A stretch of DNA of 64,000 nt, taken from positions 306,652,001-306,716,000 of the forward strand of contig OZ024742.1 in the NCBI GenBank assembly GCA_964016885.1, written 5' to 3'. Positions within the stretch are counted from its first letter, which is position 1. Every line of letters begins with the position of its first letter. A program made the translations under genes and the position numbers. This document shows, one piece after another, positions 3,091 through 60,656 of the stretch. This DNA comes from Eledone cirrhosa. Its lineage: Eukaryota. The notes under the pieces are model-generated. The model was not told the DNA's origin and did not search any database. It worked only from the letters and a program-made list of their open reading frames with translations.

Positions 3091-4141
3091 ACAGTTAAAA
3101 TGGAATTGTAATTTATATCATTCATTGTGTTTTTCTATAATTCAAAACCCGGTTGGAAGGTAATTATTTTATACAGAGGCGAGGTTATAGCTGAACATAT
3201 AAGCAGAAATCAACAGTGGCAAAATTAGGGGGAAACTTGAAAGGGATTCAGTCTTGGCGTCGTCTCCTAGCAGACGGAATGACTTGAACAATTTAAATAC
3301 GGTGGAGCCCAAGACTGAATAACCGATTTCTTCCAGAGAACAAGAGAGAGAGATGGAATGGAAGATTCGATACGTAATGTTGGATATGTAGATTATATAT
3401 ATCGACCACGATTGGATGAAAGGTAGAGTTAAGAATGGTAGGATTATATATTAGGTCGCAGAGTGCTAGAACAATTATCAAAGTATTTTTCATCTAACAG
3501 GCTACACACACAGCCTAGTTGCCGCATTAACCAATGGAAACACTATGTAATTCTAAATACAACATTGGTTCATAAGCGAACGTTTGATGGTCATGAATGG
3601 TTCATCTTTTGTACAATAATATTGCCGATGTCTACTATGCCTTGATTTTACAGAAGATTATTTATGAGCAAGACAGACATATATATATAGTATAAAAGAG
3701 AAAACACAGGTAAGCATTAAGAGAAGGATTTTATCCAGGTATTTACGACCGTTTCATTGGTAAGTGCAACCTTACATTGCTATACTGCAAATAGCAGCCA
3801 CTCAATTATAATTTGAAAATTTGGACTGTGAACAACAATTATAATTGAGTGGCTGATATTTGCAGTATAGCAATATAAGGTTGCACTTACCAATGAAACG
3901 GTCGTAAATACCTGGATAAAATTCTTCTCTTAATGCTTACCTGTGTTTTCTTTTTTATACTTTATACTCCAAGATTGAACGGAATTCTTACAAACTTGTG
4001 GAGTTACCCCTAACCGTACGTTGAAACCATCCATGAAACTGGCTTTCTTAACCAAGAACTGGATCACAATAAGCAATTTTTTGCTTCTCTAACTACAGGC
4101 TCCTTACCGGTCGAGCAACCACCTAAACATACAATACTACT

Positions 4142-6489
4142 ATGGAAAAGCATTACATGGGTATGTCCCTAAAGAACATTCCTATACCTCGGAGAAAGGA
4201 TTATACCCTCGGGATGATACAGCGAACAAACGACTTTATACGCAGAGTTAGATGGAAAACTTTCCATTTCGACAAAGGACGTAATGGTCGCACCGTGGAA
4301 TACAACAAGGAAACATACGGCTTCAAATCGTGTAAGAACCCACCTACCAACCCTCAACTGGATGCCTTTGAACATGACTTACTGAAGATGATTATGAATA
4401 TCAAATTCAAAAAGCGGAGGAATAATAAACTCCAGAATGACATAAATACATTCCTAAAAAAGCTGCGAACCACCAATGGAATTATTGTCAAAGCGGACAA
4501 AACATCAAATGTGTATACGATGGATGTAAATACATACAATAGCTTCATACGGGAGGAATTACATAGGAAATACAAAAAACTAATGAGGCGGCACTGATAA
4601 ACATCAACAACGAAGCACACAATATAGTCAAACACCTAGGAATAGACGGCAGAACGGAGCCACTTAGGCCATCTACCCTCACATTTAACCTCAAGGACGA
4701 CAAGGTAAATTTTGATTATAACCCCACAATTAGACTTATATGCCCGTCCAAATCAGACATTGGGAAAATTAGTAAACATATATTAGACAGAGTGATAGCA
4801 CAAATGAAGAATAAACTAGTGATTAAACTATGGGGTAACGCTACGGAAACAATTAAGTGGTTTAACAATATAGCTAACTAAGAAGTATCTAAATTTATAC
4901 AATTTGACATTAACGATTATTACTCATCTATATCCCCCAACACCTTGGATAAAGCCTTAGCATTCGCCAAAGCCAATTCTGACGACGAGATAAAAATCCT
5001 AGTAGCTGCTAGGAAAACAATAATTAAATTTGAAAACGCCTATTGGGAATGTAAGGATAGATTAAATAACTTTGACATCACGATGGGGGCTAACGACTCG
5101 GCTCAAGTCACAGATTTAGTAGGTATTTACATAGCCCATAGTTTACAAAGTGAGTTTAGCGACCTTCACGGTGGAATCTACAGAGACGACGCCCTTCTCC
5201 TAGTTAAGAACCTAAATAACCAGAGCATAGAAAGACTCCGTAAGAATATTAGAAAGACTCTCGGAAAACTAAGCCTTAGCATAACGTATGAGTATATCAC
5301 TAAAACAGTTAACTTTCTAGACGCGACGCTTAACCTAAATACGGGACTTATAAGACCTTTTCACAAGATTAATGAAAACTTAGCATACATCAACTGTAAC
5401 TCAAACCACCCACTATCCATAATTAAATCCATTCCACGCAGCATAGCCCTTAGGATCTCCCGCCTCTCGTCTAACCGACAAATCTTCGAAGAACATGCAG
5501 AATACTACAATACCGCATTACACAAGGCAGGCCACTTAGATAGAGTAGAATATATAGATGAAAGCCTCCGTGAAGCACACACGAACACGCATAACACAAA
5601 CTACGGTAACACACGCACACACGCACTTACGCATAGAACTACAAAGTATACTGAAAATAGAAATACAACATCGAAATCAAACAAGTTACGCAGTAGAAAA
5701 TATATTTGGTATAACCCCATATTTAACACCTCTATTAGTACTAACCTACCCTCTACCTTCTTTAGAATAATAAATAAGCACTTTTCAGATTCACATTGAT
5801 ACAGCAAAATCCTTAACACTAAATCTATTAGACTATCTTACTCCACGGCACCAAATATAGAGGCACACATTAAGATACTTAACGCTAAAAAGATACATAA
5901 CAACACCAAAACGCAAATTTACAACAATAACAATACAATCACCACCGAACACAACAGAATATCTAATACACAACCACCCACTAATAGGCAAACAAAACGT
6001 AACACACTCGTACAGGCATCGCAGCCCACCAATAATGCCAAAGTTGCCCATGATAAGAATTGTAACTGCCACCTACCTGAAACCTGTCCATTACATAATG
6101 AATGTATGCAGTCTAACCTGGTTTACCTATGCACAGTAGAATCAGACAACCAGAAATGGTATTACATCGGAGCTACTGGGAATACATTTAAAGCCCGTTA
6201 GTATACACACCGTTACGCAATGAAACATTCCCAGCATCGTTATGTAAGTACCCTTGCAAACAAGACCTGGCAACTGAGGGAAAGTAACCATCAATACACC
6301 CTGAAGTGGAAAAAATTATCGAACGCGCCCCCATATCGGAGTGGTATGAGAAGCTGTCGATTATGCGACCTTGAGCTGTTCAACATCTTGAGTTCGAAGA
6401 ATAAGTTACTCAACAATAAAATCGAAAGATCAATTTATTGTAACCATAGACTCAAAGAGAAGTTTTCGCACTACAAATCGAACCCTTAA
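4142..6489 (+). pseudogene. Disrupted PLE RT / GIY-YIG polyprotein
   Basis: Motifs IVKADKT, FIQFDINDYYSSI, FDITMGANDSAQVTDLVG, GIYRDD, FLD, SNHP, CNCHLPETCPL, YYIG, CRLC; frameshift near 4580 and in-frame stops near 4880, 5799 and 6200. Confidence 0.9.
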
Positions 6490-6715
6490 TCTCTTACTAC
6501 CAACTGACAAACTGCATATACTTAGACTTTATACCCTCTTGTTGTACCTAAACCCTTTTAATTACCCACAAAACCAATGCATATATCTCTCTCTTCTCCC
6601 TCATTCCTCTTCTATTTCTTCGTTTTCTTCTTTCCTTGCCTCCCCTTCTTGGCTATCTTTTCTTTTCTTCTTTCTCACCCCCTTCTTTGCTTTTATTTTT
6701 GTCATTATTATCTTT

Positions 6716-6900
6716 TGGATTGGCAGTATCGGTAGAGGGTCGGACGCCATGCTTTCCAGCATAGTTACGTCCCTTTACAATCTGAGTTCAAATCCCGCCG
6801 AGGTTGACTTTGCCTTTCATCCTTACGGGGTCGATAAAATAAAGTACCAGTAATGCACACGGTATTTGCTGGCCTTGTGCCTAAAGTAGAAACAATTATT
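6716..6900 (+). mobile_element. tRNA-derived SINE inserted in the PLE 3'UTR
   Basis: Same family as 2901; TSD ATTATTATCTTT at 6704-6715 and 6895-6906. Confidence 0.85.
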
Positions 6901-7341
6901 ATCTTTATCTTTATTTTATTTTTTTTTTTTTATATATATATATATATATATATATATAACATGTTATCCATGTGCAACCTGCAGTATTCTTCTCCCCATT
7001 TTTTCATATATATATATATATTTACCTCTTTATATCTCCCCCCTCTCTCTCTCCCTCTCTAGCCATCCCTCCCTCCTACTATGATCAATTTAATTCTCTT
7101 TAATTCACTACATTCCACGACATGAAGTCTGCTATCAAAACTGACCAAAGAATCCTTCCACCTCTACCCCTCCCCCCATCTCAGTTTGTCACTCTACTTC
7201 CTACCTCTACCCCCTTCCTCTCTCTCTATACTATTCCGTTTGTCCCCTCACCTTCTGATTCCTCTCTCTCTATACTAGTAAATACAATTCCAAATAAATG
7301 TATTTCTCTATATATTAAGAATTATTTCAAGGGTAACTTAC

Positions 7342-7443
7342 TATTTTGAAAATTTGGACTGTGAACAACAATTATAATTGAGTGGCTGATATTTGCAGTA
7401 TAGCAATATAAGGTTGCACTTACCAATGAAACGGTCGTAAATA
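7342..7443 (+). ncRNA. Type I hammerhead ribozyme variant (U3-A8 core, long stem II) in the 3' pLTR
   Basis: TATT-TTGAAAA-TTTGG...CCAAT-GAAA-CGGTCG-TA-AATA; stem III ACG/CGT, triplet GUA. Confidence 0.55.
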
Positions 7444-59126: not shown

Positions 59127-59381
59127 TATATATATATATATATATATATATATATATATATATATATATATATATATATATATATATATGTATATATATA
59201 TATATATATATATATATATATATATATATATATATATATATATATATGTATATATATATATATATATATATATATATATATGTATATATATATATATATA
59301 TATATATATATATATATATATATATATATATATATATATATATATATATATATATATATATATATATATATATATATATAT
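59127..59381. repeat. (TA)n microsatellite
   Basis: Direct observation. Confidence 0.95.
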
Positions 59382-59384
59382 AAG

Positions 59385-59540
59385 AAAAAGTATGACCCCG
59401 ACGGTAGAGCTGAAGCCGTTTCGACGGCTTGAGCTCTACCGTCGGGGTATACTTTTTCCTATTTCCCACTCTACTACCCTAAGTATTGAGTACTCTTGTG
59501 CGTTATGGTCCATCTGGTTCCTTACCACAATTCCTTTGTT
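59385..59540 (+). mobile_element. Mini fold-back PLE terminus (related to 12080-12240)
   Basis: About 35-bp hairpin 59385-59458, then ACTC...GAGT hairpin and GTTATGGTCCA shared with about 12215. Confidence 0.65.
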
Positions 59541-59702
59541 ATATATATATATATATATAATATATATATATATATATATATATATATATATACAAAGATC
59601 GGAATTAAGAGTATTCCGCAGTTCACTGTAATAATAATAATAATAATAATAATAATAGTATTAGCTCAAAGAAGAATAGAGAATTTCCTCTGAACTCAAA
59701 TG

Positions 59703-60414
59703 CAAGTATATGTTACACAAAGAGAAGTGTGTTACACAGTGAGATGTGTGTAAATAATTATTACAAGTGATTTTACCGTTACTGTATAGGGAACAATATC
59801 TACAGGTTAGCAATTAAATAGAAAGAAACCAGTTCAGAATCAAATCTCTGGACTGGAGTTTTAAATCACAAACCTTATAACTATATTTTGCTGATACGAA
59901 TCTAGCTTCGTTTCACCACTTATATGTGCAGTATCAGTTCACATGGATCCTCAGTCAGCAAAATGCGAACACTGAACACTACACATCTAACCTTATGGAT
60001 AGAGAGAATGCAAATAGGCACGCTGGCCAGAGTAGGGCGGAATCACGTGTTATTTGAATCAAATAACGGCTCTCATGGATTGGGGAAGATGCTAGCATGT
60101 CTATTTGCATTCTCTCTATCCATGAGGTTAGATGTGTAGTGTTCAGTGTTCGCATTTTGCTGACTGAGGATCCATGTGAACTGATACTGCACATATAAGT
60201 GGTGAAACGAAGCTAGATTCGTATCAGCAAAATATAGTTATAAGGTTTGTGATTTAAAACTCCAGTCCAGACATTTTATTCTGAACTGGTTTCATTCTAT
60301 TTAATTGCTAACCTGTAGATATTGTTCCCTATACAGTAACGGTAAAATCACTTGTAATAATTCTTTACACACATCTCACTGTGTGCACACTTCTCTTTGT
60401 GTAATATATACTTG
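59703..60414. mobile_element. Large fold-back (about 315-bp arms) with a hammerhead in each arm
   Basis: 59703-60019 is the reverse complement of about 60098-60414. Confidence 0.85.
60154..60233 (+). ncRNA. Type I hammerhead with full stem III (mirror copy 59885-59964 on minus)
   Basis: ATTTTGCTGA-CTGAGGA-TCCA...TGGT-GAAA-CGAA(GCTAGA)TTCG-TA-TCAGCAAAAT. Confidence 0.75.
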
Positions 60415-60656
60415 TATATATATATATATATATATATATATATATATATATATATATATATAATAGATTGAGTTAGAAACTCAAAATAGTCTTTTACAAT
60501 TAAATAGCTCAAAGAGAGGAATCTTTCCGAGACGTGTAATATATATATATATATATATATTGAAATTTCCGTTGAAAGCAGAAAAGGTCATAGAAGTGAA
60601 GAGTGCTCTATGTAAGTACCAGAGCAAAATTTAAAGTATAAAATCAATACAACATA

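Follow-up and report, generated by a model that had tools for sequence, protein, structure and literature searches.

A covarying stem-loop at the tail boundary of putative Hydra-clade Penelope-like elements in Eledone cirrhosa

The stretch of DNA analysed here (the window) comprises 64,000 nt of Eledone cirrhosa, OZ024742.1:306652001-306716000 (assembly GCA_964016885.1; host genome 3.0 Gb), and is crowded with short elements sitting in (TA)n microsatellites. Many of these elements share a small stem-loop that opens with RCUC and closes with GAGY. Between these lie a second stem of at least 3 bp, whose loop is anywhere from 3 to about 60 nt long, and, after the 3' strand of that stem, a 2-nt bulge beginning with U; R-C-U comes after GAGY in most copies. 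A typical carrier has the layout (TA)n, inverted X, X, hairpin, 30-90 nt more, (TA)n, where X often contains a CUGANGA..GAAA hammerhead-like core and its two opposed copies form a fold-back. The stem-loop sits at the 5' edge of the tail, where the inverted arms stop. Judged by their protein motifs, the carriers are best classed as Hydra-clade Penelope-like elements (PLEs), together with short derivatives lying in (TA)n.

Family A represents the full element, with two pseudo-long terminal repeats (pLTRs) around decayed open reading frames (ORFs). The pLTRs form a direct repeat (3809-4095 versus 7342-7628, 98.6% identity), and the 5' copy is involved in a fold-back at 3684-3965 (+), with the inverted arm at about 3684-3825 and the direct arm X at about 3826-3965 (palindrome 3684-3966, 89.9%). 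The stem-loop follows at 3966-4004 (+), reading ACUC, CAA(G), (C)UUG, UG and GAGU and scoring 29.8 bits with the covariance model R1 described below; the distance from the arm end is 0 nt, the arm overlapping the first base of the hairpin. The remainder of the tail (4005-4095, +) completes the direct repeat and gives way to the internal region with the decayed ORFs (4127-6853). In the 3' pLTR the X part (7342-7498), the stem-loop (7499-7537; 29.8 bits) and the tail remainder (7538-7626), all on the plus strand, run up to a (TA)33 tract at 7627-7692, 89 nt past the hairpin. The unit from 4096 to 7628 is about 3.5 kb long, and the ORF alone accounts for 2.7 kb.

Pfam returned nothing for the decayed family A ORFs of the window. 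An intact relative elsewhere in the genome (locus L081, 3235-5976, minus strand) carries the hairpin in both pLTRs and has an open frame of 913 aa. This frame contains RRVRWKTF (an RWK motif in place of GxKF/Y), VKADKTSN (DKG changed to DKT), CNCHLPETC (a CxCX5C linker before the endonuclease, EN) and, at its C-terminus, a GIY-YIG-like core, VYQC..WYYIGATGNTFKVRW, which has a single Cys, was read by eye and has no Pfam match. RWK, DKT, the CxCX5C linker and an EN without the CCHH motif are given as hallmarks of the Hydra clade in Craig et al. 2021 (PMC8557442). The carriers resemble the Hydra-clade C-terminal EN+ PLEs described there in their ORF motifs, an apparent lack of a CC pair in the GIY-YIG-like core, insertion into (TA)n and hammerhead-like cores in many families, but differ in that Hydra-clade elements are generally shorter than 3 kb and that family A lacks a canonical hammerhead core, having only a CUGAUAU variant. 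Family A is very abundant, with 67,099 first-look candidates, a figure that is not a copy number.

The other carriers in the window are short. In family B, the fold-back arms (11618-11967, minus; self-palindrome, 98.6%) stop 2 nt before a stem-loop with a long loop (11553-11616, minus; 64 nt overall, 25.0 bits, E 0.031), and the tail remainder (11479-11552, minus) extends down to (AT)n, 74 nt past the hairpin. Family E has a fold-back at 14727-14993 (+) with one hammerhead-like core per arm (14861-14908, plus; 14791-14833, minus), a stem-loop 6 nt further on (14999-15024, +; 41.5 bits) and a tail remainder up to (AT)n (15025-15087, +). The family C fold-back (17826-18122, +; centre at 17976/17977) likewise bears two cores (18024-18061, plus; 17884-17921, minus) and is followed by a stem-loop (18127-18153, +; 39.4 bits) and a tail remainder up to (TA)n (18154-18207, +). 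Two solo copies of the same family are tailless: one (18447-18617, minus) has its 3' end at the hairpin-side boundary, abutting (AT)n, and the other (54830-55000, +) ends at the same boundary, followed directly by (AT)33. Family D consists of a fold-back (20313-20574, +; cores at 20474-20520, plus, and 20353-20399, minus), a stem-loop at a distance of 7 nt (20581-20605, +; 39.4 bits) and a tail remainder up to (AT)n (20606-20662, +). Family F is a short fold-back without a canonical hammerhead core (59380-59462, +), with its stem-loop at 59468-59491 (+; 33.5 bits) and a tail remainder up to (TA)n (59492-59539, +). Finally, a GCUC..GAGC variant (60605-60625, minus; 32.4 bits) lies 99 nt after a hammerhead core (60676-60724, minus), has no fold-back, and is followed by a tail remainder down to (AT)n (60561-60604, minus).

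The first-pass annotation of this DNA had listed nine such hairpins, eight of which are present and are matched by R1 (25.0-41.5 bits, E 1.8e-6 to 0.031). The ninth, an imperfect ACTCCATC..GATGGAAGT at 12886-12920 (minus), has no R1 match at E<=1 and is a doubtful, degenerate case. The six fold-backs counted there are real (arms 3684-3966, 11618-11967, 14727-14993, 17977-18122, 20313-20574 and 59380-59462), and their inverted arms do end 0-7 nt before the hairpin, in A/T-rich sequence. A further family in the window was said to lack the motif, and it does: no R1 match falls at 17229-17700 or 19635-20190. Its ORFs (15081-17228 and 18995-19546) encode a CX4CxxC linker and GIY-YIG, which makes the label Neptune-like reasonable, and its 56-nt tail (17617-17672, +) shows the layout of arm end, tail and (TA)n with no RCUC/GAGY stem-loop.

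How widespread is the stem-loop, and is it maintained? In all, 864 kb were scanned: the window itself, an adjoining 200 kb, and 600 kb sampled at 12 distant sites spread over nine chromosomes. R1 was built on 13 instances, 11 of the 13 seed rows being fold-back-adjacent, and matches were accepted at E<=1. It found 83 matches where about 1 was expected: 8 in the window, 31 in the 200 kb beside it and 44 in the remote samples. Extrapolation from these last 44 matches suggests motif copies in the genome on the order of 10^5. The 83 matches make up alignment A3, with 75 distinct rows and 525 pair cells. To allow for the fit of A3 to the model and for relatedness among copies, one representative row was also taken for each of the 26 clusters of sequence downstream of the hairpin. 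(Clustering on the 200 nt upstream lumped 41 matches via (TA)n-like sequence and was dropped; therefore the tail clusters were used.) The tail families are distinct by blastn, forming 23-26 clusters, so that the motif spans at least 23-26 sequence families. The termini had been called unrelated, which is right as far as the families differ but too strong, since the motif and the R-C-U after it are common to them.

The stem-loop covaries in this alignment. Pairing is kept in 97.9% of the A3 cells, both sides change in five of the seven pairs, and none of 500 shuffles reached the observed covariation score; slid-partner controls pair at only 14.6-54.9%. The closing pair is A:U in 57, G:C in 16, G.U in 1 and something else in 1 of the 75 distinct rows, and A:U in 16, G:C in 8, G.U in 1 and U.U in 1 of the 26 cluster representatives. 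Among the same representatives the second-stem pairs alternate between U:A (14) and C:G (10) and between A:U (13) and G:C (11), and the first bulge base is U in all 26. G.U cells outnumber A.C cells by 24 to 5, which points weakly to a structure on the sense strand, weakly because R1 itself favors G.U. The five columns before the hairpin (-5 to -1) are A/T in 21-26 of the 26 representatives. A second copy of the signal was sought at the 3' end of the tail, and no shared motif was evident there in the 26 representatives.

The stem-loop also occurs in other phyla. File S7 of Craig et al. 2021 holds six Hydra consensus sequences, which were compared by eye. In Hydra-2_Amil, from a coral, GCUC, a 6-bp second stem, the bulge UU, GAGC and ACU occur about 45 nt after the hammerhead; Hydra-2_Ajap, from a sea cucumber, reads GCUC-UGC-loop-GCA-UA-GAGC-ACU, again about 45 nt after the hammerhead. 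In Hydra-1_Ajap only 2 nt of the consensus precede GCUC-UGUCC-AAU-GGACA-UA-GAGC-ACU, and the consensus ends in A/T, about 45 nt past the hammerhead; since it starts beside the hairpin and ends past the hammerhead, its curated termini correspond to the boundary under study. The Hydra-1_Obim consensus likewise ends in A/T, about 40 nt after the hammerhead. Taken together, the covariation, the closing-pair swaps and invariant bulge U across tail clusters, and the presence in coral and sea cucumber make it well supported that the stem-loop is a functional cis signal.

The position of this signal relative to the fold-backs is narrow. Within 464 kb, the window and a further 400 kb, the loose form of the motif stood between -3 and +20 nt from one outer end in 19 of 70 non-simple fold-backs, with 0.73 expected. 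Measured from the motif over the 864 kb, as the earlier annotation had recommended, a fold-back outer end lies 0-27 nt upstream of 33 of the 83 R1 matches, 29 of these within 9 nt, against an expectation of 0.65; without the 13 seed rows the count is 22 of 70. Downstream, a (TA)n of at least 5 units lies within 250 nt of 67 of the 83 matches, and the tail, taken as the hairpin plus the remainder to (TA)n, measures 39-158 nt with a median of 79 (65 matches).

Family A gives the sharpest view of the boundary. Eight further loci (L082-L089) were fetched because of a visible inverted piece; the pLTR is 287 nt, and its hairpin starts at position 158. The outer end of the inverted piece falls at pLTR position 151-158 in all eight, while the inner end ranges from 1 to 94. 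The direct copy beside the inverted arm begins at position 1-3 in all eight, and the hairpin is present in the direct copy only. A transcription start at the hairpin is unlikely for this family, as the direct copies begin 157 nt upstream of it. The shared start base, seen also in the window at 3809 and 7342, suggests a fixed 5' end of the RNA about 157 nt before the hairpin.

To count how X ends, the last 70 nt before the hairpin served as blast queries. Of the 83 arms, 54 were used, 27 being removed as low complexity and 2 because the stretch was the tail of another element. (An unfiltered count proved too noisy and is superseded.) Among 101 X ends, 61 run into the hairpin and 40 directly into (TA)n. 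In 25 inverted pairs the two ends are mixed 23 times, hairpin/hairpin twice and (TA)n/(TA)n never. Unpaired ends have the hairpin in 34 cases and lack it in 18, and 3 of these 18 adjoin blast fold-backs with an unmatched partner, leaving 15-18 solo untailed copies. If the two ends were chosen independently at the solo frequencies, the probability of at least 23 mixed pairs in 25 would be 3e-7 to 1e-6. From the pair and solo counts it follows that the inner boundary is used alone and that fold-backs are made by a process using one end of each kind. Solo copies that end at the inner boundary speak for a genuine start site rather than a signal confined to second-strand priming. At one locus (L053, 3290-4462) the whole composite is mirrored: each arm of a 1.17-kb palindrome (96.9%) combines a fold-back with a tailed element from a different family.

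What might such a signal do? The closest experimental system is the Poseidon element PAc (Frangieh et al. 2024, PMC11167929), in which both target strands are nicked and extended, the reverse transcriptase (RT) uses two adjacent internal start sites, which share no homology with the target, in a stem-loop, the genomic tail corresponds to the interval separating the two starts, and hammerhead cleavage is dispensable. The anatomy described here fits that scheme, with the hairpin at what would be the inner start. By analogy, there is perhaps an even chance that the RNA stem-loop is a landmark, probably an RT/EN binding site, that sets a second internal RT start 0-9 nt upstream. A single RNA would then offer a start at the tail end and another at the hairpin base. 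A protein nicking and extending both target strands would use one start per strand, yielding one tailed and one tailless cDNA, and the two cDNAs, joined head to head, would give the lopsided fold-back. The nicked (TA)n primer would pair with the A/U-rich stretch ahead of the hairpin. The wider proposal, that the stem-loop is the recognition element of the Hydra-clade RT and forms with the tail end a two-start module, each start used once, is put forward with somewhat less confidence; it would explain the puzzling lopsided fold-backs and make the stem-loop the first conserved cis RNA structure of PLEs besides the hammerhead.

The likenesses to PAc are several: two fixed element ends near each other with the tail between them, a stem-loop at the start region, AT-rich targets and the use of both target strands, although here the starts are read from element ends. 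Against these stand a different PLE clade, the AC-rich sequence of the PAc stem-loop, and a PAc tail of 30-40 nt compared with the median of 79 nt here; nor has a conserved covarying motif across families or phyla been reported for PAc. PLE insertions in general, as summarized in Craig et al. 2021, consist of an inverted 5'-truncated copy and a one-sided tail of 30-40 bp. The lopsided layout of the present fold-backs is like that of those insertions, but here the boundary is tied to a conserved structure, and solo copies use the inner boundary as well.

A number of observations weigh against the reading of the stem-loop as an RNA landmark for an internal start. The PAc RT starts inside its stem-loop, while the end here lies beside the hairpin, at 0-9 nt, and the tails (39-158 nt) are longer than the 30-40 bp described for Penelope. 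Under the criterion used, a blast self-palindrome, 50 of the 83 R1 matches have no fold-back, and the counts of fold-backs and solo copies derive from 54 of the 83 query arms, with blast ends good to about 3 nt. On the side of the structure, A3 was fitted to R1, which penalizes A.C more than G.U, so that the pairing and G.U figures lean toward structure, and copies inside one family are not independent. The loose pattern is not enriched (202 occurrences, compared with 231 in the reversed sequence and 145-178 in block shuffles), single-sequence folding is ordinary (z from -1.43 to +0.46), and of the four ACUC-type elements folded, only the one at 59468-59491 has the motif as its minimum-energy fold. 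The signal sits in position and covariation. Among the File S7 consensus sequences, Hydra-1_Crog has only a near match, with one stem mismatch and the bulge AG, and no clear motif was recognized by eye in Hydra-1_Obim or in the incomplete Hydra-1_Amil.

The main rival is a snap-back, in which a single cDNA started at the tail end folds back and recopies X until it is halted, or cut by the GIY-YIG nuclease, at the protein-bound or RNA-paired hairpin, which would then be a signal for stopping or resolution. This is unlikely, though it is the best of the alternatives. The near-obligatory one-tailed asymmetry (23 of 25 pairs) would follow naturally from a single molecule, for which it accounts as well as two starts do; the inverted arms have variable inner ends, whereas direct copies extend to position 1-3; and Craig et al. 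2021 ascribe the tail to EN-mediated resolution. Snap-back accounts less well for the 15-18 solo copies that end at the inner boundary beside (TA)n with no inverted partner, and in PAc two RT start sites were mapped directly, with both strands extended (PMC11167929).

Slightly less likely again, the hairpin may serve some other step, such as RNA stability, export, packaging, hammerhead folding or transcription, the arm end being set simply by pairing of the A/U-rich stretch with the (TA)n primer. The A/T bias of the columns before the hairpin, the (TA)n targets, and the Neptune-like family, which has the same layout of arm end and tail without the hairpin, all agree with this. However, A/U-rich runs are frequent elsewhere in X, and yet the family A arms end here in eight of eight loci (position 151-158), and arm ends keep within a narrow distance of the hairpin in at least 23 families. 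A signal at the level of DNA is improbable; on this view the GIY-YIG nuclease would recognize hairpin and tail as duplex in resident copies, and nicks would fall preferentially at the boundary. The idea finds some support in the Drosophila virilis Penelope EN, which needed tail sequence to recognize and cleave plasmid targets (as cited in PMC11167929), and in PAc, which nicks AT-rich DNA, its own pLTR included (PMC11167929). But the covariation preserves pairing and not sequence, the excess of G.U over A.C fits single-stranded sense RNA, and the loop varies from 3 to about 60 nt. That the hairpins have no function, the tails sharing descent and the hairpins arising by chance, is very improbable, for although the loose pattern shows no enrichment and folding energies are unexceptional, compensatory changes run across 26 tail clusters, 83 R1 matches stand against about 1 expected, and the coral and sea-cucumber consensus sequences carry the motif too.

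The preferred reading remains a stem-loop that is probably read by the RT or EN and may position priming. The first-pass annotation had proposed a cis signal for RT/GIY-YIG recognition of this kind; a functional signal at the start of the tail is borne out, and its reading by RT/EN is suggested by the analogy to PAc. Beyond the sense-strand excess of G.U, the data do not separate RT from EN, or recognition of RNA from recognition of DNA.

Small structures close to an RNA's 3' end that are read by the RT are familiar from other retroelements. In stringent-type long interspersed elements (LINEs) with their short partners (SINEs), and in the R2 3' untranslated region, a small conserved 3' RNA structure is read by the RT and marks a single 3' start. 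As with the LINE/SINE stem-loops, the structure found here is common to autonomous and to many unlike non-autonomous elements; unlike them, and unlike R2, it sits 39-158 nt in from the 3' end, as the mark of a second end. In L1 twin priming the opposite target strand supplies a second primer that is extended from within the RNA, so that the 5' part ends up inverted; but the internal site varies there, and neither part duplicates the other.

The words hairpin and stem-loop are absent from the main text of Craig et al. 2021, and full-text literature searches brought up no account of such a motif besides the AC-rich stem-loop of PAc. As far as these searches show, a conserved, covarying, cross-phylum stem-loop at the tail boundary is not in print; a fold-back with a tail is a known layout, and two starts a known idea. 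PLE integration is poorly understood; internal starts near a stem-loop were demonstrated in a single in vitro study (PAc, 2024). The present motif offers a defined, mutable RNA element in another clade, backed by compensatory changes in at least 23 families, and the question of start sites is directly testable because of these natural compensatory changes and the presence of the motif in cnidarians and echinoderms. It is also a practical marker with which to find and delimit Hydra-clade elements and their abundant ORF-less derivatives, with which standard annotation copes poorly.

Rfam gave no match at gathering score in the window, and at E<=10, in two small regions, nothing on the hairpins; the E<=10 rows, among 150 of 216 matches listed, were mostly low-complexity microRNA look-alikes. 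The likeness of GCUCU..AGAGC to the histone 3' stem-loop was considered and set aside: the loop and second stem are variable here, most copies are ACUC/GAGU, and there is no Rfam match.

The hairpins had been placed downstream of hammerhead ribozymes. This is only partly so: of the 83 R1 matches, 38 have a CUGANGA..GAAA core in the 300 nt upstream, as do four of the eight window sites. The Rfam hammerhead models stay below threshold throughout the window, and among the matches listed at E<=10 the only sub-threshold hammerheads are at 52676, 53145, 53614 and 56213. No Rfam hammerhead model picks up three hammerhead-like cores with a long helix II (18024-18061, 20474-20520 and 60676-60724, the last on the minus strand), not even at E<=10 when only 230 nt are searched. 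Tandem 469-bp units, each with a sub-threshold hammerhead (HH9, 31.8 bits), occupy 52575-53888 and, at locus L004, about 1260-5920; the latter array has at least 11 units. These arrays look retrozyme-like and have no RCUC/GAGY hairpin. Animal non-LTR retrozymes are derivatives of PLEs, short, ORF-less and hammerhead-bearing, according to the abstract and outline of a recent preprint (bioRxiv 10.64898/2026.07.22.740005), which make no mention of the present stem-loop; in vertebrates these form tandem arrays, unlike the fold-back elements here.

Several smaller features may be recorded. Families A and B have a common ACCGTACGT about 8 nt past the hairpin (4013-4021; 11536-11544, minus strand), and families C and D have the related CCGCATACT and CCGATAT at the corresponding place. 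Two more fold-back families, at 7687-7956 and 59700-60417, also have a tail on one side, though of different sequence; the tail of the former opens with TTATACTTCCACTCG.. and the family lacks a canonical hammerhead core. A 15-kb satellite at 24919-40179 (50-bp unit, 306 copies, 93% matches) is open in several frames and gives spurious Pfam repeat hits. Near the end of the window, a 590-bp inverted repeat (61426-62016 versus 63410-64000, 89.8%) surrounds an A-rich simple repeat and belongs to an unrelated element.

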